40,492 bases of DNA, from UHGV virus genome UHGV-0071542, one strand, 5' to 3'. A program made the position numbers and the translations under genes. Positions 23 through 40,151 of the stretch are shown piece after piece; positions within the stretch are counted from its first letter, which is position 1; each line of letters opens with the position of its first letter. Under the pieces are notes generated by a model that saw only the letters and a list, made by a program, of their open reading frames with translations, was not told the DNA's origin and did not search any database. Source of the DNA: a virus.

Positions 23-541
23 GTGATGAAATTTAAAAAATGTCTTCTGCCTGTGGCAATGTTAGCGTCATTCACTCTGGCAGGATGCCAGTCAAATGCT
101 GACGATCATGCCGCCGATGTTTATCAAACCGATCAACTGAATACCAAACAAGAAACTAAAACCGTTAATATTATTTCCATTCTTCCCGCAAAAGTTGCCG
201 TAGACAACTCCCAAAATAAACGGAACGCACAAGCCTTCGGCGCGCTTATTGGCGCAGTCGCTGGCGGTGTTATCGGCCACAACGTCGGTTCTGGCAGCAA
301 TTCCGGAACGACGGCAGGGGCAGTTGGCGGCGGAGCTGTAGGCGCGGCAGTGGGTTCTATGGTGAATGATAAAACCTTAGTGGAAGGTGTTTCTTTAACA
401 TATAAGGAAGGCACCAAAGTGTATACCTCTACCCAGGTGGGTAAAGAGTGCCAGTTTACGACAGGTTTAGCCGTTGTTATTACCACAACGTATAACGAAA
501 CGCGTATTCAGCCAAATACTAAATGTCCTGAAAAGAGCTAA
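23..541 (+). CDS. yfgH: Host outer-membrane lipoprotein with glycine-zipper domain (172 aa)
   Basis: Lipobox LAGC after signal peptide; Gly/Ala-rich glycine-zipper stretch; length and position next to guaA match E. coli yfgH from memory. Confidence 0.6.
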   Translation: MMKFKKCLLPVAMLASFTLAGCQSNADDHAADVYQTDQLNTKQETKTVNIISILPAKVAVDNSQNKRNAQAFGALIGAVAGGVIGHNVGSGSNSGTTAGAVGGGAVGAAVGSMVNDKTLVEGVSLTYKEGTKVYTSTQVGKECQFTTGLAVVITTTYNETRIQPNTKCPEKS

Positions 542-556
542 TAATCAGGAGGAGTC

Positions 557-1096
557 ATGAAGAAAGTTTTTCTTTGCGCCATCTTAGCCTCCTTAAGCTA
601 TCCGGCTATCGCCTCATCATTGCAGGATCAACTCTCTGCTGTCGCAGAAGCGGAACAGCAAGGTAAAAATGAAGAGCAAAGGCAGCATGACGAATGGGTC
701 GCGGAGCGCAACAGGGAAATCCAGCAAGAGAAGCAACGTCGCGCAAATGCCCAGGCCGCCGCTAACAAAAGAGCGGCAACGGCAGCGGCAAATAAGAAAG
801 CTCGTCAGGATAAACTGGACGCCGAAGCCACTGCGGACAAAAAACGCGATCAAAGTTATGAAGATGAGCTACGCAGCTTAGAGATTCAGAAACAAAAACT
901 GGCGCTGGCGAAAGAAGAAGCCCGCGTTAAGCGCGAAAACGAATTTATCGATCAGGAACTGAAGCACAAAGCTGCGCAAACCGATGTGGTGCAATCTGAA
1001 GCTGACGCCAACAGAAATATGACTGAAGGCGGTCGCGATCTGATGAAAAGCGTGGGCAAAGCAGAAGAGAACAAATCGGAAAGCTGGTTTAATTAA
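557..1096 (+). CDS. yfgI: Host secreted/periplasmic charged protein (179 aa)
   Basis: N-terminal signal peptide (AIASS), Lys/Glu/Ala-rich; RBS AGGAGG upstream; followed by terminator hairpin; length matches yfgI from memory. Confidence 0.55.
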   Translation: MKKVFLCAILASLSYPAIASSLQDQLSAVAEAEQQGKNEEQRQHDEWVAERNREIQQEKQRRANAQAAANKRAATAAANKKARQDKLDAEATADKKRDQSYEDELRSLEIQKQKLALAKEEARVKRENEFIDQELKHKAAQTDVVQSEADANRNMTEGGRDLMKSVGKAEENKSESWFN

Positions 1097-1315: not shown

Positions 1316-1798
1316 CTATCTCGTCAGGGTGTCATACTGTTTTTCGCAGACTCTTCCGGCTTCGGCTGCCCGGTCAGCATACTCTGCCAGTTGTCTGTTT
1401 CTCTCGAGAGATTTGCTGAGCACGTCGGCAAGCAAAACTCCGGTGTCTGCGGCTGACGTCCCAGCGCCGACAATGGCGTTATACTGCCTGAGCTGCTCAC
1501 GGATGGCAAAGAGTTGTTGCTGCAACCTGCCAGCGCGAGCGGCAGCATCAAGAGCATCATTGCGCGCCTGGTCGATTCTCTGCTGCGCTTCACGTTCATT
1601 GGTCACTTTCTCCTGTTCGTAGTACTGACGAACTTTGTCTTCTTCGTCTTTGCGGTCTTCTTCCGCCTGCGCATACCCGGCATCGTACTGGCGACTGCCG
1701 TGTATATTCCAGGCAACCACTCCGACGATGAACAGAGCAGCAAGCATCACCACGATAATCAGTTGTTTCCAATATGCTTTTACGAATGCCCAGATCAT
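1316..1798 (-). CDS. Rz-like i-spanin (inner-membrane lysis protein)
   Basis: N-terminal TM segment then charged coiled-coil; directly downstream of endolysin with overlapping start/stop. Confidence 0.7.
1324..1560 (-). CDS. Rz1-like o-spanin lipoprotein embedded in Rz in another frame
   Basis: Internal start [13 protein letters not shown] (lipobox) inside the ORF-track ORF 1324..1599; Pro-rich mature part; fully within Rz. Confidence 0.45.
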   Translation of the reverse strand: MMLLMLPLALAGCSNNSLPSVSSSGSITPLSALGRQPQTPEFCLPTCSANLSRETDNWQSMLTGQPKPEESAKNSMTP

Positions 1799-2424
1799 AT
1801 AGCCAGCACCTTACTGGCAGTGACGTACCGCGAGCGCCGGTCGTCGATGCCGTTCCGGCCACCATTGATAATCAGAGTTACACGTGCAATATCACCGGTA
1901 TACTTCATGCATCCTTTGCTGGCAAAGAACCACGCCGCGCTACGAGCCGCGTATTCGTCCTGCGCCAGCAGTTCAGGATTCTCCAGCAGGTCAACTTTCA
2001 TACCGTTTCCGCAGTCACGATAGTTATTCAAACCGGTAATCTGGATAAGCCCGCGCCCACGGTAATTCCAGCCATCGCCGGGAGCATTGTTACCCATGCG
2101 TTTGCTGTAAACCAGATTTGCGATCGCGCGCTGGCGCTCAAGTGGCAATGGTGGTTCACCAGCACGGCGCCCCAGTGCATTAGCCTGTCCCTGGGTGAGG
2201 CGTCCAGTCCTGACAAAGCTCGCCAGTCCGCTGACGCTGTAGTTGAAATTTTCCTGCAACCGGGTGAAGCCTCCAGACTCATGCCCGACCTGAGCAATAA
2301 ACATTGCCTGATCTTCTGGTTTGCTGATATCAAACTCTTTCATCGCAGAAGTTATATGCGAGAACCAGCGTGCGGCCAGCGCCTCGCTAATACCAGCAGC
2401 TCGTTGGAATTGTTTAATCTCCAT
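1795..2424 (-). CDS. Endolysin, glycoside hydrolase family 19 (chitinase-like)
   Basis: Motifs [28 protein letters not shown] typical of GH19 phage endolysins. Confidence 0.85.
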
Positions 2425-2722
2425 GTTTAGACCTCGTTATTTTGAAAATCTGAACAACGTTACCGCGAGTTTTAATAACCGCAGCTAGCATGACAGCGTT
2501 GATAATGACCTCAGATAAATCCACAGCCATTGGCGTACGTAACCAGATTGCATAGGCGACACGAACAGGAATACTGGCCGCAGCAACAATCAGGAAATAA
2601 GCAAGCCATCCTCCCCACCTTCGGTGTTGAGAGCCGTTACGCCGGAATGTGACAACGCGAATTGCTATGCCAGTGCAAATAACTGCATTGGTGATAAGCA
2701 AAAAAAACTCATGCGTTACCAT
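2414..2722 (-). CDS. Holin-like membrane protein
   Basis: About 100 aa, 2-3 predicted TM helices, immediately upstream of endolysin with overlap. Confidence 0.55.
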
Positions 2723-3122
2723 CGTCTTTTCTCCCCGGAATTAACTCGCGTGGATTATCGGAACGGTGATAAAGCCATATACCAATTCGCACAGCGACAA
2801 TTGACGACACAAATGCGCCAGCAGAGAAGACGATCCCTTTCTCGAAAGAGTCCTGCGTGATGGTAGGGATCAGGCTGGCTACACCGATAAGGATGGATGC
2901 TGTAGGTTTGTAAAAGAGAAGGCCACAGAGAAAGCTAAGCATCGACAAGAGTACGCGACGACGAATGGGATACTCTACTGCAGAGGTAACAAAAATAACC
3001 GCTCCAGCCAAAGACCCCAAAGCAACCTCAGGAGGTGCTCCTGCTATAACCGCCACCAGAGAACTCATGCTAAGCCACTGATTTAAAGACTCACTGGTTA
3101 TCTGAACTGACATAAAAACCAC
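2709..3122 (-). CDS. Holin/antiholin-like membrane protein
   Basis: Multiple hydrophobic segments; first gene of lysis cassette after a 270-bp AT-rich gap; start may be the MSVQ Met at 3110. Confidence 0.5.
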   Translation of the reverse strand: MVFMSVQITSESLNQWLSMSSLVAVIAGAPPEVALGSLAGAVIFVTSAVEYPIRRRVLLSMLSFLCGLLFYKPTASILIGVASLIPTITQDSFEKGIVFSAGAFVSSIVAVRIGIWLYHRSDNPRELIPGRKDDGNA

Positions 3123-3395
3123 CGTTTAATGTGCATATGCCCCCCTAATTTAAGGGGTTCATCATACACAATAAACCACATGTGGTTAAACAGGTAATTC
3201 ATTGTGATACTAATGTTAAACTCATTACTGCCGAAAAAGTGTCACTGATTAAAACACGGTAGAGAAATTATTAACGAGTAATTTAGGCATAATTACAATA
3301 TTTAAGTTATTAATTCACTGATTTAATCAGTAAAAGATAGCTATAACATACCACCTCCCAAGGAGGTGGTTTAGGAATAACAATAAAATATGTAC

Positions 3396-5411
3396 TTACG
3401 CACTTCGTAATAAATGTTTAGACATAGCAGCAATACAGAAACAAGATAAGTCAGCGTAATTTACACCATACATATCCGATTCTTTATCATAAGTAACCAG
3501 AGAATAGTCTGTAGGGTTAAGATTATATTTCTCCATAATCAGCATTACTTCTTGAGCCATACATCCGAAGTGATACTTATCAGATTCTGCATCTGTCCAT
3601 TTAAACTTTATCATGCTAATGGCTAATTCTAGCCCTGCACTATACTCTGCCGTAGATATCTCATACACATCTTTACATCTACCGTCAGATGTTTGTATTA
3701 CACCATTAGTTGCAAAGACAGTTTGCCATCTACGACTAGATTGACCACAAGTTCTTTGATTATCTATCTGGGGGGCAACACTACCATCTATACGCAAATA
3801 GTTATCTTCCGCTTGTGCGCCTCCCATAACACCTTCTAAAAAAGGCAATCCTTTGTGATTATTTACAATGAATTTATTGGAGGTATCTTCTGATATTCCG
3901 GTGCCAGCATCTGGACCTATAAAAATATTACCATTTCCAGTTGGTAATTTTCTTCCTGCTCTTGCTCCTATCATAACATTCAGGTCACCTGAGGATAGGG
4001 AATTGAGAGCATCAACACCAATTGCTGTATTAAAATTACCTGTGAGAGTCCCAGTGTATGGGTTCTCAGTTGATGATACTCCTCGCAATGCTCCATTACC
4101 TATAGCTGTGTTATGATCACCTTGCTTTAACTCCCTACCAGCTGCATTACCAATAAGGGTATTTCCATTACATTTATCATACCCAAGACGTACACCTTGA
4201 GGGTCTGTGTAGATGCCAGTACGCATTCCTGCAGAGCGTCCTATTGCAACATTAGCTTCTCCAGAATGGAGTTGCTGCAAAGCTGACATACCAACTGCAA
4301 CATTGAACCTACCATCCTTACACTCGTTTAGCGCATCCCTGCCAATACCAATCATGTTATTTCCAGTGGTGGCTTTCTTCAAAGCATTAATACCTATACT
4401 GATAATCTCTGTTCCAGAAAATGGCGACTTATCTGTAAGATCATCTTCTAGAGTATCTCCTGACAAACCACCCACACCAACCACGATTGTGTTAGTGCCG
4501 CTAGTTATGTTGCGACCAGAACTTGGTCCAAGCAAAACCAATTGATTACCTTTACCAGAGTCAGTGTAATTTTTTGCGGCATCATAACCTAAAATAAGGT
4601 TGCTATGAGACTGAGCTACATTGGTAAACGGAATTCGTTCCGCTCCTGTCTCTTTAATTATTTTTCCTGGGCCATAAAATCTTCCATTAATATCTTCCGG
4701 CAATAAATACGTGCCATCAGGAACATAAACACCTTGTGGCGAAGCAGATGCCGCGGCAATGAAAGCATCTGTATCATTTGTGACTCCATCACCTTTAGCG
4801 CCAAAGTCAAGAACACTGACAGTATCCCGCATCTTATCCTGAAACGTTCTATATACCGCGCCTGAACCATACTGAATAAACCAACCAAAACCACCAACAA
4901 CCCCGGCGATTGCAGCATCGACATAATTACGCATTGAGCGATTATTTACAGCGTCCTGCTCAAGTGATGGATCTGCAAGGTTAGAAATTCTGTTTTGCTT
5001 TGCATCGTAATATTTTGCAAGCAAAGATGGTTTCATCAATGCACGTCTGAACCACCCAAAACATTGCTGGATCAGCATCGTCAGGTAGTCAAAGGCATCT
5101 TCATGCACTTCGGGGAAAAACTTTCCCTGATTGCGAAGGTCTGTCTCCTGCACTACATCAAGCACACGATCTATCGTAATTCGCCATCCAGCAGCAAGCG
5201 GCGACGGAAGAACAACAGAACCGCCACTATAAGTGCCCGCCCCAGTTACCGTATAACCGGTATCCAGAACCAATTCTGTTACGTTCCCGTTCAGGTCAGA
5301 CACCTGAACAACCAGGTCGGATTTTTTGAAAATACGGAAGGTATACGGAAATGATGTCGTAACGCCGTTACCTGTGTATTCGTTGTGGTCAACTTCGGTT
5401 GAGACCGTCAT
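3396..5411 (-). CDS. Tail fibre/tailspike with C-terminal intramolecular chaperone (peptidase S74-like) domain
   Basis: N-terminal fibre anchor motif YTGNGVTTSFPYTF; Gly/Asn-rich beta-helix-like repeats; C-terminal chaperone-like segment; 3' two-thirds AT-rich. Confidence 0.75.
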   Translation of the reverse strand: MTVSTEVDHNEYTGNGVTTSFPYTFRIFKKSDLVVQVSDLNGNVTELVLDTGYTVTGAGTYSGGSVVLPSPLAAGWRITIDRVLDVVQETDLRNQGKFFPEVHEDAFDYLTMLIQQCFGWFRRALMKPSLLAKYYDAKQNRISNLADPSLEQDAVNNRSMRNYVDAAIAGVVGGFGWFIQYGSGAVYRTFQDKMRDTVSVLDFGAKGDGVTNDTDAFIAAASASPQGVYVPDGTYLLPEDINGRFYGPGKIIKETGAERIPFTNVAQSHSNLILGYDAAKNYTDSGKGNQLVLLGPSSGRNITSGTNTIVVGVGGLSGDTLEDDLTDKSPFSGTEIISIGINALKKATTGNNMIGIGRDALNECKDGRFNVAVGMSALQQLHSGEANVAIGRSAGMRTGIYTDPQGVRLGYDKCNGNTLIGNAAGRELKQGDHNTAIGNGALRGVSSTENPYTGTLTGNFNTAIGVDALNSLSSGDLNVMIGARAGRKLPTGNGNIFIGPDAGTGISEDTSNKFIVNNHKGLPFLEGVMGGAQAEDNYLRIDGSVAPQIDNQRTCGQSSRRWQTVFATNGVIQTSDGRCKDVYEISTAEYSAGLELAISMIKFKWTDAESDKYHFGCMAQEVMLIMEKYNLNPTDYSLVTYDKESDMYGVNYADLSCFCIAAMSKHLLRSA

Positions 5412-5587: not shown

Positions 5588-5607
5588 ATTGCATGGAGAA
5601 GATTAAG

Positions 5608-5865
5608 ATGCAGCAGTATCACTATCCACTGGAAGACGGATTTACCGAAAGGATTCACACGCCGGGAGGCGTCAGGTCACTGGTGGAGGGATCGCACTTG
5701 ATGAAATTACTCCGGGATCTCGATAAGGATGGATTTAATGTCGATGGCCCACTTGCCGAACTGACTGCACTGATTAACTACGTCACCAGCTCACAGATGT
5801 CTATGCGGGATCTGCAAACACATCTCGACTATTGTGCCGAACAATTACGAAAACAAACCCGGTAA
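5608..5865 (+). CDS. Small SOS-regulated protein, candidate antirepressor
   Basis: ORF-track ORF 5593..5865; ATG at 5608 has RBS GGAGA; opposite strand to flanking late genes; complex hairpin plus T-run downstream. Confidence 0.5.
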   Translation: MQQYHYPLEDGFTERIHTPGGVRSLVEGSHLMKLLRDLDKDGFNVDGPLAELTALINYVTSSQMSMRDLQTHLDYCAEQLRKQTR

Positions 5866-5897
5866 ATTTAAAGGCCGCAAGAGCGGCCTGTGACATG

Positions 5898-6194
5898 TCA
5901 CGCTCTTTTTCTGAATGATAGCCATTCGAAAAATGATGACATTCCACCGCAGACAATAGCAAAGATGATCCCACCAAAGAAGAGAAGGCCAGCCTGCCAC
6001 CACTCCCACCGCCATACATCCACAGCGCCAACCATACCAACAATCGCTCCAACAAATGGAATATAGCTCACGATGAAAGCAATGGGGGCTGCAATTATCC
6101 AGTGCAATCCCCACCATGATTCAAGCCCAGCCATAATTGCTGCCAACTGAAAAAGACCAACGACGATATAAACAATGAATCCTATAGCTTGCAT
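5898..6194 (-). CDS. Small integral membrane protein (98 aa, about 3 TM)
   Basis: Highly hydrophobic, Trp-rich; lies between internal virion gene and tail fibre. Confidence 0.45.
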   Translation of the reverse strand: MQAIGFIVYIVVGLFQLAAIMAGLESWWGLHWIIAAPIAFIVSYIPFVGAIVGMVGAVDVWRWEWWQAGLLFFGGIIFAIVCGGMSSFFEWLSFRKRA

Positions 6195-6389
6195 GTAGTC
6201 ACCTATTTACCCAGTAAAAATCAGAGGCCTCCCCTCAATAAGGCTTGCAACAAGAACTATTCCCTGCACAACAAAGATGAACCAGCAAATAGCTTGAGTC
6301 TGAGGGTTAAGAAAATATTTGTAGCGGTCAATAAATAACAACCCACCAGAAATTATCACACTCAAAATAATTAAAAACACAACACTTCC

Positions 6390-8864
6390 TTATTGCGGAG
6401 TGACATCCTGAGGTCGCCACCAGTATGTCTGGTTAAACTCTTTCTTCGAACGTTGCTCCATTTTACGCAAATAGCCTGGTGAAAAATACTCCTGCATCTG
6501 GTTAAAGATCATATGATCGAGAGCCGCCTTTAAGTACCAGAGATTCGCACCTGGCATCAAACCTTTCCCCAGCTTCACCAGATCACCACCAGTCTGCTCA
6601 CTCTTCCCTTCCACAGCATTTAACGGTATGCCCTGAGCAATCTTCACTACGTCATCAACCAGACCAGCTACCGGGCCAAGCATCGACGCCAGCGCGCCGC
6701 TTCCGTACCTAGTGTGATCTGACAATAAAAAGTCACCGTAAAGGCCAAGACCACCACCTTTCAGTAGAGCACCAAGCCAAAATTTAGCAGCATCTTCTCC
6801 TGTCATCTCGCGAGGATTACGACCAGACGCAAGGTCGTTAAGTTGCTGCGACAAAGCGCCAAGAATGGTCGTACTGGCAATAAACGTCGCAATATATGCC
6901 GCACGCCCACCAGCAGACGGCATACCCATAGCGCGTGACCAGTGACGCATAACCACCGAGATAGGGAACGATTTAAACAGGAAAACACTTCTCGTTAATT
7001 CACCTTTCCATGTTCCACGCTGAATACCAGAACCGGTTATCAGTTGCTCACGTGCTCCTGGTGTAATAACAGCCATATCAACTTCTTCAGTTACGGCACC
7101 GAGCAGTTTACGCATTGCCTCAAATTTCACGCGTTCAGGCTCACCAAGATGTTTAACTGCTGAATCAGGGATACGCATAATGCTTTCCGGTGTCAGCATC
7201 GTATTATTGCCGTTCCCCCAGTCCTCCTGTTGCGCCAGCTTCCATACGCTCCAGTCTGTGTCAGTAATCCCTTTGCTTTTCAGGATACGAAAATCAGAAT
7301 CATCGAGGCTACGAAGGTCTGGTGTCCGTGACACTACTTCTCCCAGGCTTCCCATCATGGTTACGCCATAGGCGCGCTTGTGCGCATCTGACCATGCTGT
7401 AAGCCCACTGGCACGCATTACCGCCGTTGCAGCCCAACGAGATACAGACGGCCCCATATTATCCATCGCCCAGCGGTTAACGCTGCCAAGTAGAGATTCC
7501 ATCGCCAGACCAGCGCGGCGCGCCCGCGCAAGTTCTGTACGGTTCGTTGGGTCCATAGCTTCAAGCTGGTTGCGGAATAACTGGTTCATTGGAAGGTTGG
7601 TAACCTTCGCAGACAGATACATGGTTCCAAGATCAGAGAACGATGACAGCAACGCGGATCCGAGTCTGCTGGCAACCAGCCAGTTGCGGATATTGTCAGA
7701 CCATCGCGCGATGTGCGGATTCGCTACAGGCTGTGTCTTTCCGGAAATAAAGTTGTACAGATTCTCTGTGTTGTTCGCCAGCCGCTCGACTTTACCGGTT
7801 TTACTCGGGTTAGCTGTTGCCGTTTCTGCCTTCACCTGATCAAGAAGAGAGCGGAAAACATGATCGGGGTTTGGGCCATATGTTTCCACCAGTGCAATAT
7901 CTTTACTGATACCTTCAAGGTGACCGACCATGATTTCCCATAGAGAGCGATCGCCATAAAGTTGCTGATATTGCAGATAGGAATCTGCATCTTTGAAATG
8001 TATCTGTCGTGATGCATTACCACGGTTAGCACGTGCGCCGGAAATTCGCATTCCGGTATCAGTAAGCTTATTCAGCCCACCAGTAGCGATCGTGTTATAA
8101 GCCTCTCCAAGAAATGCAGACAACTCGGCATCGTTCATCAGTTGTCCATCGGCTCGGGTATAATATTTGCGATCCAGCTTACCTATAACATCGCTAACCC
8201 ATTTATCTTTTGATACCGCCCCAACCTTTTCCATAGAATGATGTTGAGGGATCCCCCAGTTTTCGAGATAGCCAATGTCCCCACCAGCATCATTAAACCG
8301 GCGGCGCAGCAGCTCTGTAACTTCTCTCCACGCCTTAGCACCTTTTCTTGCTTTAGCATTGCCAGTATTTTGCCCCCGCATTTCATATACCAGGTCACGT
8401 ACGCCCGCTTCATCTTCAAACAGACCAAAAAAGCGAGGATCAACTGCTTCGAATGCCTCCTGCAATTGACTCAATGCATAATCACGGGTGGCTTTTGTTC
8501 TGGATTCAACAGAGAGGAAATTCGATTTACCGTCTGCATTAAAAGCAATAGTACGGTTAAGAGCGCCAAGTTTCCCATCAGCCCCTTGATAGCTATTGAT
8601 AAATTTATCCAATCTCTGACGTGCGGCTATAGTGAGGGCCACACGACGTTTCTTTAATGCCGCTTCTCGCTGTAATTCTTCAGATGCCAATTGTGCTGCA
8701 CGATACAACCGTTCTGATTCGGAAAGTTGTCGCCACGACATCGGGTCATCACGAGCAATGGAGCGCATATTTCGATAAATGCGGTCTTCAATGTTCTGTA
8801 TTTCTCGCGCCGTTAACGTGCGCTGCGCCGCCTGCTGGACCGCTTGTATACATTCCTGTCTCAT
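6390..8864 (-). CDS. Internal virion/ejection protein (824 aa)
   Basis: Large protein in the block of large genes between tail-tube and tail-fibre genes, as in T7-like and epsilon15-like virions. Confidence 0.6.
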   Translation of the reverse strand: MRQECIQAVQQAAQRTLTAREIQNIEDRIYRNMRSIARDDPMSWRQLSESERLYRAAQLASEELQREAALKKRRVALTIAARQRLDKFINSYQGADGKLGALNRTIAFNADGKSNFLSVESRTKATRDYALSQLQEAFEAVDPRFFGLFEDEAGVRDLVYEMRGQNTGNAKARKGAKAWREVTELLRRRFNDAGGDIGYLENWGIPQHHSMEKVGAVSKDKWVSDVIGKLDRKYYTRADGQLMNDAELSAFLGEAYNTIATGGLNKLTDTGMRISGARANRGNASRQIHFKDADSYLQYQQLYGDRSLWEIMVGHLEGISKDIALVETYGPNPDHVFRSLLDQVKAETATANPSKTGKVERLANNTENLYNFISGKTQPVANPHIARWSDNIRNWLVASRLGSALLSSFSDLGTMYLSAKVTNLPMNQLFRNQLEAMDPTNRTELARARRAGLAMESLLGSVNRWAMDNMGPSVSRWAATAVMRASGLTAWSDAHKRAYGVTMMGSLGEVVSRTPDLRSLDDSDFRILKSKGITDTDWSVWKLAQQEDWGNGNNTMLTPESIMRIPDSAVKHLGEPERVKFEAMRKLLGAVTEEVDMAVITPGAREQLITGSGIQRGTWKGELTRSVFLFKSFPISVVMRHWSRAMGMPSAGGRAAYIATFIASTTILGALSQQLNDLASGRNPREMTGEDAAKFWLGALLKGGGLGLYGDFLLSDHTRYGSGALASMLGPVAGLVDDVVKIAQGIPLNAVEGKSEQTGGDLVKLGKGLMPGANLWYLKAALDHMIFNQMQEYFSPGYLRKMEQRSKKEFNQTYWWRPQDVTPQ

Positions 8865-8869
8865 TTAAT

Positions 8870-10672
8870 TTAACCTCTCAAGAAACACGCCACAGCAACA
8901 TCAAACAGGCTGGAATCCTGTATTGCCTGCTCACTTTCCCTGTTCGCTTCATCCAGTACTTCACGCGCACTGCGCGATTGTGGATTACCATCATCATCCA
9001 GCACGGTGATTATCATGTCAGGTGATTCAAGCAGCGAGTCTTCAGCTATGCGCAGATCAATATCTCCTGCCTGATCTGACATCATTTTTTGTTCTGCCTG
9101 TTGCAATATTTTATCAGGCTCAAAAGGAGCTACTTCGTCTGGCGTCCTGACCTCTGCTGTTTTATAGAATGAAACAGCCTGAGCATTAAGTTCACTTTCT
9201 GCCTGCTGTCTCCGAGCCAGTTCTGCTCGAGCTTCAAAAAACTGACCGCCAGGCTCGTGCGGTGCCAACGCGTTACGGGAAAATTCCAGGCGTTCTTGTG
9301 CCTGCCGGATTCGTTGATCAATATCGCGAAGTCTGGCCTGTTTATCTGATCGAGCACGAGACAAAGCTTTACCGCTACCGGTTGGCTCTTCTGCAAGAAT
9401 TTGTGCACGCTGTTCAGTGAGATTTTCAATAATTCGTTGGCTATTAGCGATTTCAGACTGGTAAACCTGTCTATCTCCACGCGGCAAAAGCTGCGCGGCC
9501 TGTTCTTCAAGCAACCGATTTTCTATAGCGCGCGCCGTTACTCCATCATCTACAGATGACAGAGCCTCATTAACTGCCTGAGACAGCAGACTCTTGCGCC
9601 CAGGAATTTCACTGAAAGATGCAGACTCAACAATGCTGGCAACGTCTACAGGTCTCCCCTGGCTAACATCAGACATAGCTTTTCGCAGAGCCTGAATGTG
9701 AGAATTGCGCGAAAGCACGTTGATCGGCACGCCGGGCGCAATATCAATTTCAGCATGATGAGCGGCATTCGCCGCCAGTGCAGCATCGATATCAACTGGT
9801 GAAAAATTTGGTGCGTTTGTAGACTCGCCGCGAGAGTTAATAAATCTGCCGACACCACCAAACGCCACCCCAAGAACAGCATCAATAGCAATTGCCTGTC
9901 GATCCAACACATCATACTGGTTAGCCATTTCGCTATAGCCACCATCACGAAGTGTTTTTGCAGTAAGCCCACGCTGTGCCATACCGAACGCAATATTTGT
10001 ACCTGCGGCATAGGCAATATCTGGCGTTGCACGTACTGCTGTTGCTGCGGCGCGTCGCACTGAACTCTCACCCGTCCGCGCAAGCTGAGCCGCCACACCT
10101 TCCGCCAGCGCACCACCAGCACGTAACCCGAGGCTCATAGGGATCAGCGTTCCGGCACCAGCAGTAATGCCCTGCACTAATCCCGCTTCCTGCGCCGTCC
10201 TGAAATCAACACCCTGTGCTGTCAGCCGTTCAAACTCAGAAAAACCCTGTAGCGAAGTTACCGCCGCTGCACCTCCGACAGGACCACCGAGCGTTGTACC
10301 GACAACAGCCTGCCCGCCCATATCGAACAACCCATAAAGAACCTGCCCAGCGGTTCCAGTTGTCGCGGCATCAGGCGTCAGCCGCTTAACCTGCTGCTCT
10401 GCTAGTTTTCTCTGCTCGGCAATGTATGAAACTGAAGTATCATTGAGCGAGGTGTTTTCGTTAACAAACTGAGCAATCGGGGATACGATTTTATCCATCC
10501 CTGCCCATAGCAACTGATCTGGCTTTGCCACCAGCCCGGAGTACAAACCAGACAATGCCGCTCCTACAGCATTGTCGAAAAAACCAACATCGCTGTTAAA
10601 GCCAGCTGGATTTGATGCTGCTTCGTCAAGCTGCTGATTCTGGTTTACTGGATTAAGGCCAAAGTAACTCAT
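8870..10672 (-). CDS. Internal virion/ejection protein (600 aa)
   Basis: Ala/Gly-rich large structural protein, translationally coupled to neighbours. Confidence 0.55.
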   Translation of the reverse strand: MSYFGLNPVNQNQQLDEAASNPAGFNSDVGFFDNAVGAALSGLYSGLVAKPDQLLWAGMDKIVSPIAQFVNENTSLNDTSVSYIAEQRKLAEQQVKRLTPDAATTGTAGQVLYGLFDMGGQAVVGTTLGGPVGGAAAVTSLQGFSEFERLTAQGVDFRTAQEAGLVQGITAGAGTLIPMSLGLRAGGALAEGVAAQLARTGESSVRRAAATAVRATPDIAYAAGTNIAFGMAQRGLTAKTLRDGGYSEMANQYDVLDRQAIAIDAVLGVAFGGVGRFINSRGESTNAPNFSPVDIDAALAANAAHHAEIDIAPGVPINVLSRNSHIQALRKAMSDVSQGRPVDVASIVESASFSEIPGRKSLLSQAVNEALSSVDDGVTARAIENRLLEEQAAQLLPRGDRQVYQSEIANSQRIIENLTEQRAQILAEEPTGSGKALSRARSDKQARLRDIDQRIRQAQERLEFSRNALAPHEPGGQFFEARAELARRQQAESELNAQAVSFYKTAEVRTPDEVAPFEPDKILQQAEQKMMSDQAGDIDLRIAEDSLLESPDMIITVLDDDGNPQSRSAREVLDEANRESEQAIQDSSLFDVAVACFLRG

Positions 10673-13182
10673 TGCGGAATATCTCCGGAGAATCTCTGAC
10701 GCTTCTGTGTCAGATTAAGAACAACGGGAGAACCATCATCTTTCAGCAGATAACCAGTACCAAGTTTCACCAGGTACTGACTATCGCCGTAACTTTGCAA
10801 ACCATACTGACCAGGCGGTGTTTTTATCCCAGAGCCGACAACTTGTTCATTCCAAGCCTGATTAACCTGCTTATCGAATTGCTCTGCAGACATTCCCCAC
10901 GGCAAAAGGACATTCCCCATTCCGTTATAGTCATGCACGCCACCTGTAGCTACGTTAACAGCCTGTTTCCAGACATCATTGTCAATTTCGCCTGATACCA
11001 CGCCTTTTTTCGCCATCACACCAGCGTAATAATCCTTTGCGATCTCGTATGCCATTGATGCCCCCTGAGCGTCACCAGCAAATGCATCCTTCACCATGTC
11101 AGAAAACTCAAGGCGAAGATCAGCATCTTTAGGCATCGGAATACCTTTCGCATCATCAGTACCTTTACGAGCCGCCGCGCCAGCAAGAATTGTCTGCGCA
11201 GCGGTTTCAGGAGACACGGAAACATCCGGATTAAACCAGTTTTTTTCTGCCAAAATACCACCTGGCTTATCCATCAGTATCCCGGCAACGGCAGCAGATG
11301 GAGCGTTGGCACTGATCTGCTGTAGTGCTGACATATACACCTGCCCACCACCAGTGCTCTGCCTGATGGTATCGAGATATGCTGCCTGTTGGGAAACGGG
11401 CGCATCACGAAAGAAAACACCGATCTGATTGGCCTCGTCTTTGGAAAAGAACGTCAGTGGAGTGCCATATGACTTAGCAAGGTCACTGACCTGAGCAGCA
11501 CGCAAGGCAACGCTCTGTCCAAAGTTATCCTTATTGCTCATGTCGATAGGCTTTGTCTGTCCGGCGGCAAGAGAGAACTGTACAGGATCAGCCTGTCGCT
11601 GCTTTATCACCTGACTTGCAGCCGACACAACGTTGTCATAAAGAGCGGCTCGTGCCGCATAACCCTCCCCTGTCTCACCAGTATCCGGGCGTAATTGCTC
11701 AACATATGCTGTAATGCTGCTTGTCGGCATGTTGCGGAAAGAGCCTATATACTGTCCGGCGATTTGCGTATTTCTGAACTCGGTATATCGCAGGTTTCCT
11801 TCTCTTACTCCATAAGCTGCAATAAAATCAGCCTCACCAGGTGGGTTAGGAAATTCAACGCCACGCATATACGCAGCTGTCGCATCGCGAACCTGGCTGT
11901 CAATCATCGTTTTATATTCAGCCTGCTGCTGCCGACGCAGTTGATCCGCCTGTCGCATAAAACTTGCCTGCGCCTCAGGAGATGCCGCATCGAATGCTGC
12001 ATTACCGGTATAGCGTTTGGTGTTGGTTGGAATTGTTGATAAACCAAGTGCTGCACTGACACCAGCAGTTAACTGCTGATCACTGTATGGCTGGCTACCG
12101 TTCTCATGATGGATAATGGCTGCACAAAGCGCCTTCAGGGTATCAGGATTAGATGCATCGAGAGGCTCATCAGCAGAAACGCCAAGTTGTTCGCACACTG
12201 CTTTGATATACGACATAGTGTCATTTTTATCAGCAGGCGGTGCCCAGCGATTAATTATCTCGCTGACGGTATCAATACCCTGCCTCTGATACGACATCAG
12301 GTTCCGCCCTAATGCACGAATCCCGTGTTCAGGTGTTTCGAATTTAGCAAATCGACCATCATCACCGGTCTGGCCTACCCACGGATTAGTTTTGCTGTAT
12401 TCGAGATTTCCTGGGTTATTGTTGCGTATGCCACGGGCACGCTCGGAAGAGTCACTATCTGCTACAGCACGGCGAGCTCCAGCAGCAGTATCACTTAACT
12501 CGCCATTACTTTGGATGAATGCGGTCGCATTGTTTGCCGACCACTGGGACAATGCAGCATCAGCAACCTTCTCTTTAAACTCGATTTTCTTGGCCTGGAT
12601 TTGCTCGTTGCTCCAGCCATGTGCAACACCGTACTCCTCAATTTGCTGGAAAGTTTGTTTGTTAGCCAATACGTATGCGGCGTTGTCGCCATACAATGCT
12701 GCGGCATTTTTACCATTGTTCAGCAGTGTCGCCTGAAACTGGCCTTCTTCGTAGGCATTAATTTGCCCTATCTCGTGTCGCCCGGCCTGCGTAGTGAACT
12801 GAATGCGCTGCTGCTGCGCCTGCTGCATGAAAGCATTACGAGCCTGTTCATCCGGCAGCGACATAGCCAGTTGTTCGACCTGAGCATCAAACTGCTGCGT
12901 ATACTCATGGCCTTTTCCAATAGCATTTTTCCCTTTCAGGTTAAGCAAACCTGTTTCAGGGTTATTCAGCAGATCACTGCTTATCTGACTGAGGTTAAGA
13001 GATGCCTCCTGAGCCAGAGCGATATTGGCACGCTGTTTTGCCTGCCCCAAAACATCAATTGCCTCTGTCCCTGCCCGAACAAAAGCATCACCAATACCTG
13101 GCTGAGAAAACGTCTGCAAGCCTGCTGACTGAACTCCACGGCTCTCAACCTGGCGTCCGGATACTGTTGGTACGACTGGCAT
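10669..13182 (-). CDS. Internal virion protein with putative peptidoglycan-hydrolase domain
   Basis: Start reassigned to ATG after RBS GGAGG (TAATG overlap with upstream stop); motif GIRNNNPGNLEY...WVGQ as in virion-associated muralytic domains. Confidence 0.6.
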   Translation of the reverse strand: MPVVPTVSGRQVESRGVQSAGLQTFSQPGIGDAFVRAGTEAIDVLGQAKQRANIALAQEASLNLSQISSDLLNNPETGLLNLKGKNAIGKGHEYTQQFDAQVEQLAMSLPDEQARNAFMQQAQQQRIQFTTQAGRHEIGQINAYEEGQFQATLLNNGKNAAALYGDNAAYVLANKQTFQQIEEYGVAHGWSNEQIQAKKIEFKEKVADAALSQWSANNATAFIQSNGELSDTAAGARRAVADSDSSERARGIRNNNPGNLEYSKTNPWVGQTGDDGRFAKFETPEHGIRALGRNLMSYQRQGIDTVSEIINRWAPPADKNDTMSYIKAVCEQLGVSADEPLDASNPDTLKALCAAIIHHENGSQPYSDQQLTAGVSAALGLSTIPTNTKRYTGNAAFDAASPEAQASFMRQADQLRRQQQAEYKTMIDSQVRDATAAYMRGVEFPNPPGEADFIAAYGVREGNLRYTEFRNTQIAGQYIGSFRNMPTSSITAYVEQLRPDTGETGEGYAARAALYDNVVSAASQVIKQRQADPVQFSLAAGQTKPIDMSNKDNFGQSVALRAAQVSDLAKSYGTPLTFFSKDEANQIGVFFRDAPVSQQAAYLDTIRQSTGGGQVYMSALQQISANAPSAAVAGILMDKPGGILAEKNWFNPDVSVSPETAAQTILAGAAARKGTDDAKGIPMPKDADLRLEFSDMVKDAFAGDAQGASMAYEIAKDYYAGVMAKKGVVSGEIDNDVWKQAVNVATGGVHDYNGMGNVLLPWGMSAEQFDKQVNQAWNEQVVGSGIKTPPGQYGLQSYGDSQYLVKLGTGYLLKDDGSPVVLNLTQKRQRFSGDIPQ

Positions 13183-13727
13183 TATAATCCTCCGGGTAAT
13201 CTGGTTCCTGCTGCTGCCCCGATTGGCGCAGGGGTGCTTTGAGTAAACGGACTCCACGTCCCACCAAACATCTGGTACGCACCGTATGCCTTCAGAGGCG
13301 CAGTGAGCAATGTTGTTGCTGCTCCCACATTCCCCTGTTTACGGGCTGAACTGGCTTCTGCTTTATAGTTGGCAGCCTGAACCTGATAACCGTAAGCCTC
13401 GCGTTGCGCGTTATTCACCGTCGTCAGCGAATCAAGAGCGCCAAACTGAGCAGTGTCACCAAATATATCCAGCGCGTTACCGGTAGATAAATCAGCGCCG
13501 GTAGCCCCCATTGTCGCCGCCTGTGTACCAAGCCGCTGTCGGGTCTCTCTGCGCCGTTGCTCAGCTTCAGCGTTACCCCTGTTTATTGCATCATTTGCCT
13601 GAGCTGTGGCTATATCTGCGTTCGCTTCTGCAACCTTCGAGGCATACTTTCCCTGTTGGTACTGGGTGTATGCCTGAATGCCACTCATGGCGAGCATTGC
13701 GCCACCAGCAATAACCGGATCGCACAT
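13182..13727 (-). CDS. Virion structural/internal protein (181 aa)
   Basis: Ala/Gln-rich; position in structural operon. Confidence 0.45.
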   Translation of the reverse strand: MCDPVIAGGAMLAMSGIQAYTQYQQGKYASKVAEANADIATAQANDAINRGNAEAEQRRRETRQRLGTQAATMGATGADLSTGNALDIFGDTAQFGALDSLTTVNNAQREAYGYQVQAANYKAEASSARKQGNVGAATTLLTAPLKAYGAYQMFGGTWSPFTQSTPAPIGAAAGTRLPGGL

Positions 13728-14191
13728 TATTTTCTCTCCATGTGAAATCTGTGGAAATTAAGACCAAGAGCACCATAAGGCGCGGCTTCTTCAAGCCTGA
13801 ATCCAAGCCAGTGCAGCCATGCTTTGGCAACATGGTTTCGCTCGTCGACATAGTTTTCCAGGCGCGGATAAACTGCCAGCATCTGCTGCAATACAGGGCG
13901 GCAGTGGCGAAGAAATGTCTTCTGATATTTTTCGATACGGCTGGTTCCGACCAGCCAGGGCGTACCATTGCCACCGATCATTGACGCCGGAGATACGCCA
14001 AACATGGTTACCAGTTCTCCGTTCGCAAATCCTGACCAGGCCATAGTCGCAGTACGCAGACCAACACGCAGCGCATCTTCGGTAGTCATCAGCGATACCG
14101 CATACAGTTCGTCAATATCAGCCTGACGAACATCCGGCAAAATCATCTGAAGATGCTCTTCGGTAGCGGGAATAATTTGAACGTCGATCAT
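13727..14191 (-). CDS. Hypothetical structural protein (154 aa)
   Basis: Coupled ORF within structural operon. Confidence 0.45.
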   Translation of the reverse strand: MIDVQIIPATEEHLQMILPDVRQADIDELYAVSLMTTEDALRVGLRTATMAWSGFANGELVTMFGVSPASMIGGNGTPWLVGTSRIEKYQKTFLRHCRPVLQQMLAVYPRLENYVDERNHVAKAWLHWLGFRLEEAAPYGALGLNFHRFHMERK

Positions 14192-22777: not shown

Positions 22778-22854
22778 GTGGCATTAGCTCAGTTGGACAG
22801 AGCAACCGCCTTCTAAGCGGTTGGTCGCAGGTTCGAATCCTGCATGCCACGCCA
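22778..22854 (+). tRNA. tRNA-Arg (anticodon UCU), phage-encoded
   Basis: 77 nt; 7-bp acceptor stem GTGGCAT/ATGCCAC; D-arm GCTC..GAGC; anticodon loop CTTCTAA; T-arm GCAGG-TTCGAAT-CCTGC; 3' GCCA. Confidence 0.85.
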
Positions 22855-26034: not shown

Positions 26035-26268
26035 TCAAAGTCCATCAAATTCATCGTAAAAACTCTCGTCAAGATACCCTTCCCATTTACCGCGAATGAA
26101 AATTACATCCTCACCGCAAGGGTGCTGACTGTCGATAACTATATCCCTCCTGGCGCAACCATACTTGTGCATAAGAAATTTAACCTCTTTCGGAAAATTT
26201 GCTGAGTTATCTCTCATATCTTCAAGGTCGTAGCGTATTTTTGGCATAACACCTTCGTGACATGTCAC
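26035..26268 (-). CDS. Hypothetical protein (77 aa)
   Basis: Coupled ORF in early-right accessory block. Confidence 0.4.
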   Translation of the reverse strand: MTCHEGVMPKIRYDLEDMRDNSANFPKEVKFLMHKYGCARRDIVIDSQHPCGEDVIFIRGKWEGYLDESFYDEFDGL

Positions 26269-38900: not shown

Positions 38901-40151
38901 TTATTCCCCCGCCATCCACTTCTCAAACTTCGACGGGGAGAACGGAATCAGATCCGTATGCTCCCCGTCAATCCAAGAATCAATCATATCGGCCCACTGC
39001 TGCAACATGTAGGCGCGCTGTCTGGCGTATTCCGCTTTGTTATATACGGCGCGCACACCTTTCTGCTCATGTGCCAGAGCCTTTTCAATCCAGTCTGAAG
39101 GATAACCAGCCTCATGCAACAACGTACTGGCTGTACGGCGCATATCGTGTACGGTGAAGTCCTGAATATGCTCACCATCTTCATTTATTATTTTCACCGT
39201 TCTGTCGATCAGAGAGTTCAGTGCGGCATTAGATAATGGCTTCCGGAAATTGTAACGACCAGGAACCAGGTATTCACTTCCACCAGCGCACATCTGCAAC
39301 CCGACCAATATATCCTGTGCCTGTTTAGGCAGGTAAATAACGTGCGCCCGGCTTCCTTTCATGCGGTCTGAAGGAATTGTCCATGTCCATTTTTTAAAAT
39401 CTATTTCATCCCACGTTGCATTGGTGAATTCGCCCTTACGAACCATAGTGATAAGCACCAGTTTTAAAGCCATTTTCATAGTGCCCATAGCACCAATGGC
39501 ATCCAGCGTGCGGAAGAACAGGCCAATTTCTTCTGGTGTCAGTGTTCGCTCTCGTGGTTTAAATATGGCGATAGACGAAGGTTTAATGTCAGCCGCAGGA
39601 TTAAACAAACCATGACCACGGTCATTGGCGTGACGGTATACGCTACTGATGATCTCCCTGGCCTGCACTGCTGTTGCCCGGCCACCGCGTTCGACAATCC
39701 GGTCACACAAATCACGAACCATCGATGTGGTAATTTCAGCCATCATTTTATTGCCAAGAACCGGAAGTATGTCACGGTCGATCACCGCCTGTTTCATTGC
39801 GCGGGTACTGTCAGCCAGGATGACGTGTTTCATATAACTGTCGGTATGTACCGCAAACGTCTCGGCACCACGAATCTTTTTGATACCGTCACGTTTAGCC
39901 GCAGCCGGTGACTGGCCTGCTTTAAGCAGCTTCTTTGCAGCAATCAGTTCTTCTCGCGCTTCTGCCAGGCTGATACCGTCACGCCCATACTGCCCGATTA
40001 CCAGCGTTTCGCGGCGACCGTTGATACGGTAGTCGTAGCGAAACGAGACCGTGCCTGACGTAAGCACAGCTACATACAGCCCGTCACGATCGGAGACCTT
40101 GTACAGTTTGTCCTGCGGCTTGAGGTTTTTTAATTTTGTATCGGTAAGCAC
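38901..40151 (-). CDS. Tyrosine integrase (P4-like family)
   Basis: N-terminal arm-binding-like domain and C-terminal catalytic region ending HDMRRTASTLLHEAGY; adjacent to attR. Confidence 0.85.
   Translation of the reverse strand: MLTDTKLKNLKPQDKLYKVSDRDGLYVAVLTSGTVSFRYDYRINGRRETLVIGQYGRDGISLAEAREELIAAKKLLKAGQSPAAAKRDGIKKIRGAETFAVHTDSYMKHVILADSTRAMKQAVIDRDILPVLGNKMMAEITTSMVRDLCDRIVERGGRATAVQAREIISSVYRHANDRGHGLFNPAADIKPSSIAIFKPRERTLTPEEIGLFFRTLDAIGAMGTMKMALKLVLITMVRKGEFTNATWDEIDFKKWTWTIPSDRMKGSRAHVIYLPKQAQDILVGLQMCAGGSEYLVPGRYNFRKPLSNAALNSLIDRTVKIINEDGEHIQDFTVHDMRRTASTLLHEAGYPSDWIEKALAHEQKGVRAVYNKAEYARQRAYMLQQWADMIDSWIDGEHTDLIPFSPSKFEKWMAGE

Follow-up and report, generated by a model that had tools for sequence, protein, structure and literature searches.

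We analyzed a 40,492-nt stretch of viral DNA, UHGV virus genome UHGV-0071542 (hereafter, the window, to which all coordinates refer), and within it two small open reading frames (ORFs) that follow the gene for the internal virion protein gp17. Both are real protein-coding genes for small integral inner-membrane proteins, one of 98 amino acids (m98) and one of 57 amino acids, and we refer to the pair as the cassette. We are highly confident in the descriptive part of the account that follows, namely that these are genuine, accessory genes for inner-membrane proteins, carried as cargo in a slot where such genes are swapped. The cassette and its flanking signals comprise six features.

6385..6391, minus strand: Shine-Dalgarno sequence AAGGAAG of the 57-residue ORF, 4 nt before the GTG at 6380 (read from the sequence)
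6207..6380, minus strand: gene for the 57-residue, two-helix membrane protein, GTG start (ORF list; hydropathy)
6199..6204, minus strand: Shine-Dalgarno sequence AGGTGA of the 98-residue ORF, 4 nt before the ATG at 6194 (read from the sequence)
5898..6194, minus strand: m98, gene for the 98-residue membrane protein, ATG at 6194 (ORF list; phrog_3075)
5890..5901, unstranded: perfect 12-bp palindrome GTGACATGTCAC, overlapping the TGA stop of the 98-residue ORF
5872..5889, unstranded: G+C-rich hairpin AGGCCGC-UCUU-GCGGCCU (terminator scan, minus strand: 7 pairs, 6 of them G-C, with a T-rich tail)

Coding potential of the two ORFs

The genes are tightly packed. The Shine-Dalgarno sequence of the 57-residue ORF overlaps the gp17 stop codon TAA (6392-6390), 9 nt separate that stop from the start of the ORF, and 12 nt separate the two ORFs. 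Relative to Klebsiella phage BUCT711, both ORFs are under purifying selection and keep their lengths at 17–18% nucleotide divergence. In the 98-residue ORF, third codon positions account for 44 of the 49 nucleotide differences, with a nonsynonymous rate (dN) of 0.027 and a ratio to the synonymous rate (dN/dS) of 0.018; for comparison, dN is 0.10 for the adjacent gp17. The 57-residue ORF has 32 nucleotide differences (9, 6, and 17 at first, second, and third codon positions; dN/dS 0.19) and retains its frame and length in BUCT711, and among its relatives the start codon is GTG, TTG, or ATG at a constant position. That these might be chance ORFs in an intergenic spacer, which could be argued because the RefSeq annotation of an identical copy (E. 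coli FT130) omits the 57-residue ORF and the GenBank entry for phiv142-3 starts the 98-residue ORF wrongly, has a negligible probability and is already refuted by the substitution pattern, with its third-position bias, low dN/dS, and constancy of frame, length, and start position in both ORFs, to which are added a Shine-Dalgarno site before each, a full-length PHROG match for m98, and annotation of the 57-residue protein in other genomes.

In phiv142-3 the affected gene, Orf12 (locus L003, 3028-3384), is annotated with its start at an upstream TTG, so that the called gene crosses the 57-residue ORF in a different frame. Several database entries for m98 are 118–149 amino acids long through the same misannotation of an upstream start.

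An initial sequence-only reading of the window had described a polytopic 98-residue membrane protein at 5898..6194; these coordinates are exact, on the minus strand, and the structural model described below gives the protein four helices. The same reading had proposed a second, possible hydrophobic ORF of about 50 residues at about 6216..6370, which is indeed real and hydrophobic but larger, with the GTG start extending it to 57 residues.

Predicted structures of the two proteins

m98 matches phrog_3075, a family of unknown function, almost from end to end (residues 1–97 on profile positions 1–97 of 98; expect value, E, 2.2e-54). Hydropathy identifies three long hydrophobic stretches, and an AlphaFold2 model built with 28 homologues (mean predicted local distance difference test score, pLDDT, 91.2) places helices at residues 2–28, 32–42, 46–59, and 65–97. 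The resulting architecture is a short helical hairpin held between two long helices, with two Trp-rich loops and a basic C-terminal tail, FRKRA. The hairpin formed by helices 2 and 3 looks re-entrant and is probably too short for two membrane crossings. Because the tail is basic and the Trp-rich loops are acidic, we infer for the modeled protein that both termini are cytoplasmic and that the Trp-rich loops face the periplasm. The invariant residues (G13, Q16, A19, W27, G29, P46, G53, G56, A57, W63, A68, L71, F72) fall in the helices and the Trp-rich loops, and helix 3 has a G-x3-G-x2-GA pattern, which suggests that the helices pack tightly or that the protein self-associates. Scans of m98 against Pfam, NCBIfam, and PADLOC returned no matching model above threshold, and fold searches returned no significant match among solved or predicted viral structures. 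An internal duplication within m98 was tested and rejected.

The 57-residue protein has hydrophobic helices at residues 1–19 and 28–50 by hydropathy, and the positive charges in the loop between them, DRYKY, make it likely that both of its termini lie in the periplasm. It has no match in Pfam, NCBIfam, or PADLOC. We infer that it is an independent small membrane protein whose role is similar to that of m98.

Exchange of genes in the slot after gp17

To place the cassette among its closest relatives, we surveyed 80 IMG/VR loci in which gp17 is 94–100% identical to that of the window. In all 80, the product of the gene beginning about 10 nt beyond the gp17 stop is an envelope protein, of one of the following types.

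57-residue plus 98-residue pair: 36 of 80 loci
phiV10p21-like two-helix protein of 46–48 amino acids: 25 of 80 loci
lipoprotein of 137 amino acids, lipobox ISAC: 11 of 80 loci
lipoprotein of 126 or 138 amino acids, lipobox LVGC: 8 of 80 loci

This comparison marks the 57- and 98-residue genes as accessory cargo and not virion parts, because phages with a nearly identical gp17 hold alternative cargo in exactly this slot. Phage phiV10, for example, has neither ORF and carries a 46-residue two-helix protein there, and the slot of epsilon15 holds gp18, a protein of 64 amino acids with two helices. Replacement of cargo between near-identical phages, one of the marks of a moron, is thus directly visible in the four types found among the 80 loci. 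None of Pfam, NCBIfam, PADLOC, and PHROGs assigned a function to the two ORFs of the cassette or to the alternative cargo, whether the two-helix protein or the lipoproteins. Homology between the 57-residue family and the phiV10p21 family was considered and rejected, as the score was no better than that of a reversed control.

The pair is itself not obligate, and the arrangements in related prophages indicate that each gene recombines with other cargo independently. A 58-residue homologue of the smaller protein is followed by a 93-residue membrane protein and m98 in one Salmonella prophage, by a homologue of epsilon15 gp18 in another Salmonella prophage, by a 126-residue lipoprotein in Citrobacter, and by an uncalled 92-residue membrane protein in Klebsiella oxytoca. 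Conversely, prophages of Cronobacter, Salmonella, and Yersinia carry m98 without the 57-residue ORF.

A conserved spacer of about 95 nt with an inverted repeat, CTGGTG...CACCAG, precedes four unrelated second genes that follow the 58-residue ORF (L108, 5178-5274; L109, 5178-5274; L112, 5178-5278; L110, 5172-5270). The window, with 12 nt between its two ORFs, lacks this spacer, which might act as a promoter, as a processing site, or as a linker for recombination.

Distribution and the wider m98 family

The exact cassette is present in 216 of 5426 complete E. coli genomes (∼4%), and its genes also occur in prophages of Klebsiella, Salmonella, Citrobacter, Cronobacter, and Yersinia; homologues in Klebsiella, Cronobacter, Yersinia, and Salmonella prophages are 54–94% identical. 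The family of the 57-residue protein is narrow: its members are at least 74% identical, are found in E. coli, Citrobacter, Klebsiella, Salmonella, and Enterobacter, and always lie directly after gp17. We found no description of either protein in the literature searched.

The m98 family is far wider. A word-indexed search recovered 52 relatives, all about 95–100 amino acids long, unnamed, and from Enterobacterales, and a profile search of 1.84 billion representatives (clustered at 50%) recovered 742 family members at E ≤ 0.001, 311 of them at E ≤ 1e-10. Members occur in Alphaproteobacteria, Desulfovibrio, and Chloroflexi. Some of the longer ones fuse the domain of about 90 residues to RDD, DUF805, MORN, or extra membrane segments, and one protein carries several copies of it; the RDD, DUF805, and MORN fusions of the distant members gave no functional lead. 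A scan of genome contigs for distant members, made with a single peptide pattern, yielded nine loci; Microvirga and Desulfovibrio have distant members in islands and prophages, and Buttiauxella has one at a chromosomal site. One lone metagenomic copy stands beside an integrase, behind an upstream spacer of 185 nt and away from ejection genes.

At two alphaproteobacterial loci (L101, 7308-7646; L103, 7304-7594), a small membrane protein with the motif KxPYGYYxxLRIV directly follows the m98-family member. This protein may be a recurrent partner in the alphaproteobacterial clade.

Within the enterobacterial prophages, m98 keeps its place beside gp17 homologues that have diverged widely.

Cronobacter: gp17 identity 24%, m98 identity 61%; m98 directly after the gp17 homologue
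Salmonella: gp17 identity 26%, m98 identity 54%; m98 directly after the gp17 homologue
Yersinia: gp17 identity 27% over 215 residues, m98 identity 60%; one opposite-strand gene intervenes

Since the order of gp17 and then m98 recurs despite this divergence, the order is either old or has been re-created repeatedly. m98 is far more conserved than the adjacent ejection protein and does not track gp17 as binding in an arms race would predict, so its partner is more likely to be a conserved host membrane component, or m98 itself as an oligomer, than gp17.

Boundary and transcription of the cassette

The palindrome GTGACATGTCAC occurs twice in the window, against 0.1 copies expected by chance. Regardless of cargo, it is found at the same place in epsilon15, in phiV10, in the relatives from Cronobacter and from Klebsiella, and in 73 of the 80 IMG/VR loci. 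By this comparison, the palindrome and the hairpin beside it form a conserved 3′ boundary of the slot, whatever the slot contains.

The second copy of GTGACATGTCAC in the window, at 26257-26268, ends the gene for a 113-residue regulator similar to N15 gp46 and epsilon15 gp49, just upstream of the small terminase gene; both copies overlap the TGA stop that ends a transcription unit. Epsilon15 has three copies (2142, 19517, 39612) at equivalent places, where they are unannotated. The element may be a regulator-binding site or a boundary element.

The hairpin at 5872..5889 (fold energy −17.3 kcal/mol) is apparently a bidirectional terminator, serving both the late operon and a convergent plus-strand gene; the terminator scan hit is on the minus strand only, and termination on the plus strand is read from the downstream T-run. 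The cassette genes are the last of the late transcription unit, as the palindrome and hairpin directly follow them and the convergent gene ends there. Their late-operon strand and the 9–12 nt spacings imply co-transcription with the late genes. Similarity to the Klebsiella phage stays even through gp17 and the cassette and is lost immediately beyond the hairpin, and the 3′ end of gp17, where identity to that phage is likewise even, contains no embedded promoter or conserved island. A weak TGnGATAAT (−10 at 6357-6352, inside the 57-residue ORF) is degraded in the Klebsiella phage and was not used as a promoter. An Rfam scan found no RNA family in the region.

Neighboring genes and phage type

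The window is the genome of a Uetakevirus (epsilon15/phiV10-like), an E. coli prophage whose late genes lie on the minus strand. The region is 97–98% identical at the nucleotide level to the Uetakevirus phages phiV10, phiv142-3, HEMP4, PAS61, and YDC107_2, and the minus-strand late genes keep the order of epsilon15. The neighboring genes are as follows.

13182..14191, minus strand: internal virion proteins, late operon
10669..13257, minus strand: gp15-like protein bearing a transglycosylase, late operon
8870..10672, minus strand: gp16-like protein, late operon
6390..8864, minus strand: gp17-like internal virion/ejection protein, 824 amino acids (phrog_684, ‘virion structural protein’, full length)
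5593..5865, plus strand: convergent gene of 90 amino acids, epsilon15 gp19-like (phrog_450, E = 2e-48; phrog_1760, ‘anti-repressor’, E = 5e-7)
3396..5411, minus strand: tail fibre/tailspike, 671 amino acids (PHROG tail-spike families; Pfam Pect-lyase_RHGA_epim; weak Peptidase_S74)
1316..3122, beyond the tail fibre: complete lysis cassette with two holin-family proteins, endolysin, and Rz

The gp17-like protein is the final large gene of the late operon and is 27.7% identical to epsilon15 gp17, which has been described as a homologue of the T7 ejection protein IVP-D (internal virion protein D; PMC4819975). The label ‘internal virion gene’ in the sequence-only reading was thus apt, and the gene order bears out its placement of the membrane-protein ORFs on the late strand between that gene and the tail fibre. 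Its statement that they lie just upstream of the receptor-binding gene does not hold, as the terminator (5889..5872) and the plus-strand gene at 5593..5865 intervene. That plus-strand gene resembles the C-terminal part of an anti-repressor. A second variable zone is the opposite-strand stretch that separates the terminator from the tail fibre; in the window it contains the gp19-like 90-residue gene alone, and relatives have Bro-N anti-repressors, a HicA/HicB-type pair, DUF2335, or small membrane proteins there.

The tail fibre has a conserved N-terminal anchor and a variable receptor-binding part. Only 274 nt, AT-rich with a G+C content of about 0.30, separate it from the first lysis gene (3123-3395); this gap is where the O-antigen conversion genes of epsilon15, phiV10, P22-like phages, and several relatives lie. 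In the lysis cassette, the gp23-like protein is 91% identical to epsilon15 gp23 and the holin is 83% identical to the epsilon15 holin.

A tRNA-Arg gene (anticodon TCT) lies within the phage genome at 22778-22854 on the plus strand, opposed to the late genes. The left end of the window, beyond Rz, holds a DNA methyltransferase-like gene and a phrog_1094 gene (23-1096, plus strand), and the integrase lies far to the right (38901-40151, minus strand). The order in epsilon15 differs, running from Rz through attP, int, and gp28 to the methyltransferase. The genome record may have been permuted, or prophage junctions may be part of the window.

Possible functions of the slot and its cargo

We tentatively propose, as a possible reading, that the slot is a swap site for envelope proteins that would protect the infected or lysogenic cell from the entry of other phages. 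The logic lies in the placement of the cassette, which matches that of sieA in phage P22: the order in the window is gp17, the 57-residue gene, the 98-residue gene, the terminator, the gp19-like gene, and the tail fibre, and that of P22 is gene 16, sieA, mnt/arc/ant, and gene 9. SieA blocks DNA injection, and mutations that escape it lie in the ejection proteins gp16 and gp20 (PMC10883804). Bro-N anti-repressors occupy the same inter-module region of Uetakeviruses, and in the relative ZX5 such an anti-repressor is functional and promotes the lytic cycle (PMC9782041). Superinfection exclusion was one of two functions suggested by the sequence-only reading; position, membrane location, and cassette swapping leave it the most plausible reading, and no homology to a known exclusion protein was found.

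Mechanistically, m98 would lie in the inner membrane, its ends cytoplasmic and its two Trp-rich loops on the periplasmic side, and would hinder the assembly or the use of the DNA channel that the ejection proteins of podoviruses form through that membrane. Its partner would be a conserved host membrane component, or m98 itself as an oligomer. The lone metagenomic copy, with its upstream spacer, may be transcribed separately in that one case, and we count it in favor of a block to entry. A more specific version, which we consider doubtful, would make m98 the first phage-linked member of its large unnamed family, blocking passage of DNA through the inner membrane through binding to a host factor needed by T7 IVP-D-type ejection systems, and would make the site after gp17, bounded by GTGACATGTCAC, a dedicated exchange point for anti-entry genes in the late operon.

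Several results weigh against a block to phage entry. Alignment of the m98 family profile with P22 SieA by hhalign gave a probability of 0.2%, the PADLOC defense models show no similarity to either ORF, and a tblastn search of m98 against 50,697 phage records matched only Uetakevirus-type records. The conservation of m98 across genera, and the non-phage and fused members of its family, would fit a general membrane function equally well. The paper on phiv142-3 expression and its supplement report nothing on Orf12 of that phage. A moron can also be recognized by a promoter and a terminator of its own; no sigma-70 promoter lies upstream of either ORF at the scan thresholds used, and the terminator after the cassette also serves as that of the operon. 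Transcription of the cassette may therefore be late only, which would be poor timing for exclusion and unlike that of sieA.

Among the alternatives, a general contribution to host fitness is somewhat improbable but survives best. Here the cargo would act on the membrane physiology of the lysogen (ion leak, stress tolerance, or envelope homeostasis) with no specific anti-phage role, and the slot would collect any small gene tolerated at the end of an operon. The size of the m98 family (742 representatives), its presence in islands and at chromosomal sites, and its fusion to membrane modules agree with this, as do the strong conservation of m98 (dN/dS 0.018) and its lack of co-variation with gp17. 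Serum survival is influenced by phiv142-3 as a whole prophage, and this prophage has the cassette, though the study credits the effect to orf6 and orf10. Against this, m98 recurs after gp17 homologues where gp17 falls to about 25% identity, all of the alternative cargo consists of envelope proteins, a bias typical of entry blockers, and there is no similar known fitness factor.

A role in lysis timing is unlikely. The two proteins would be extra late holin, antiholin, or pinholin-like proteins that tune membrane depolarization, and they are small, have several membrane helices and a basic C-terminal tail, and are probably co-transcribed with the late genes. A weak match to Phage_holin_5_2 (E = 0.027) reaches 15.2 bits against a Pfam cut-off of 29.2, with just 2 of the 28 family members scanned giving it, and we rejected a holin identity for m98 for this reason. 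The complete lysis cassette lies elsewhere, so the ORFs are not beside endolysin or spanin genes, and the genes are dispensable in close relatives, where lipoproteins can replace them.

Slightly less probable still is that the cassette helps, or protects against, the ejection proteins of its own phage, for example by shielding the producing cell from pore-forming gp15–gp17 or, as a minor virion component, by aiding insertion into the membrane during entry. The tight spacing with gp17 and the long-standing order of gp17 and then m98 speak for such a role. Against it, viable isolates with a gp17 at least 94% identical carry neither gene (e.g., phiV10), the lipoproteins that replace the pair could not do the same job, and m98 neither co-evolves with gp17 nor is confined to the vicinity of ejection genes.

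Serotype conversion, the other function suggested by the sequence-only reading, is very improbable. It would have the small membrane proteins inhibit or modify O-antigen synthesis in the manner of epsilon15 gp22 or gp28, and it draws on the lack of a recognizable O-antigen conversion module in the window and on the likewise tiny size of the known polymerase inhibitors, which are membrane proteins too (epsilon15 gp22 has 66 amino acids). Yet tblastn searches with epsilon15 gp21, gp22, and gp28, phiV10 Oac, and P22 GtrA/B gave no hit in the window below E = 0.03 and, within 5866..6390, only a chance Oac fragment (E = 0.45). Epsilon15 gp22 and gp28 are tiny membrane proteins from the same phage genus, but their genes lie on the opposite strand, beyond the tailspike or near the integrase, and they have no similarity to the cassette. 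That reading had asked whether homologues stand next to tailspike genes in related genomes. Among the 36 cassette loci, 10 could be typed because the retrieved DNA included the receptor-binding part, and these fall into nine tailspike clusters, so that the cassette accompanies at least nine tailspike types and is not tied to any one. A cassette 100% identical to that of the window stands in E. coli FT130 beside a different tail protein and that genome's own acyltransferase, Cronobacter relatives with m98 already carry Gtr-type or acyltransferase modules, and homologues span genera with unrelated O-antigens. Together, these results argue against a role tied to a given O-antigen.

If a block to entry is borne out, it would affect the host range of O-antigen-specific podophages of the phiV10, PAS61, and SPN1S group, which serve in typing, detection, and therapy, and the cassette site would be a compact place for swapping exclusion genes. 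For the widespread m98 domain family, to which no function is assigned, a plating result in E. coli could provide a first lead. Should no function emerge, these would be ordinary accessory genes of unknown function at a module boundary of a temperate phage. What appears to distinguish the site is a slot directed strictly at the envelope, a conserved palindromic boundary, and a large unnamed m98 family whose confidently modeled fold lacks a known relative.

Comparison with known systems

Small inner-membrane proteins that block the entry of phage DNA include T4 Imm and HK97 gp15, which come from unrelated phages. HK97 gp15 is a moron within the late morphogenetic operon, with a reported promoter of its own. 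The exclusion lipoproteins T5 Llp and phi80/N15 Cor are encoded beside the entry-machinery genes that they guard against. In this respect they resemble, among the cargo of the slot, only the two lipoproteins that replace the 57- and 98-residue pair in sister phages, to which no similarity was detected; they differ in acting on an outer-membrane receptor.

Closest in position are epsilon15 gp18 (64 amino acids; phrog_29212) and phiV10 p21 (46 amino acids; phrog_7892). Both are two-helix membrane proteins encoded in the same slot after gp17 and followed by the same palindrome and terminator, but they have no detectable homology to either protein of the cassette.

The system most like the one proposed here is P22 SieA, from which the cassette differs in several ways. 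A tblastn search with SieA found nothing in the window below E = 0.1. SieA has 162–164 amino acids, three membrane helices, and a cytoplasmic FxRYPxEAxxFNK motif, which on reading is absent from both ORFs; its family comprises proteins of about 160–200 amino acids with 3–4 helices and a cytoplasmic C-terminal region, whereas m98 has 98 amino acids and a five-residue tail and the other protein has 57 amino acids. The sieA gene is on the opposite strand and is expressed in the prophage from its own promoter, whereas m98 is on the late strand and no promoter was found for it, and m98 is much more conserved than the SieA types. The likeness lies in the overall plan: in both, a temperate, O-antigen-specific podovirus carries, between its last ejection gene and its anti-repressor and tailspike region, an accessory gene for a small polytopic inner-membrane protein, and in both that position is filled by several unrelated sequence types.

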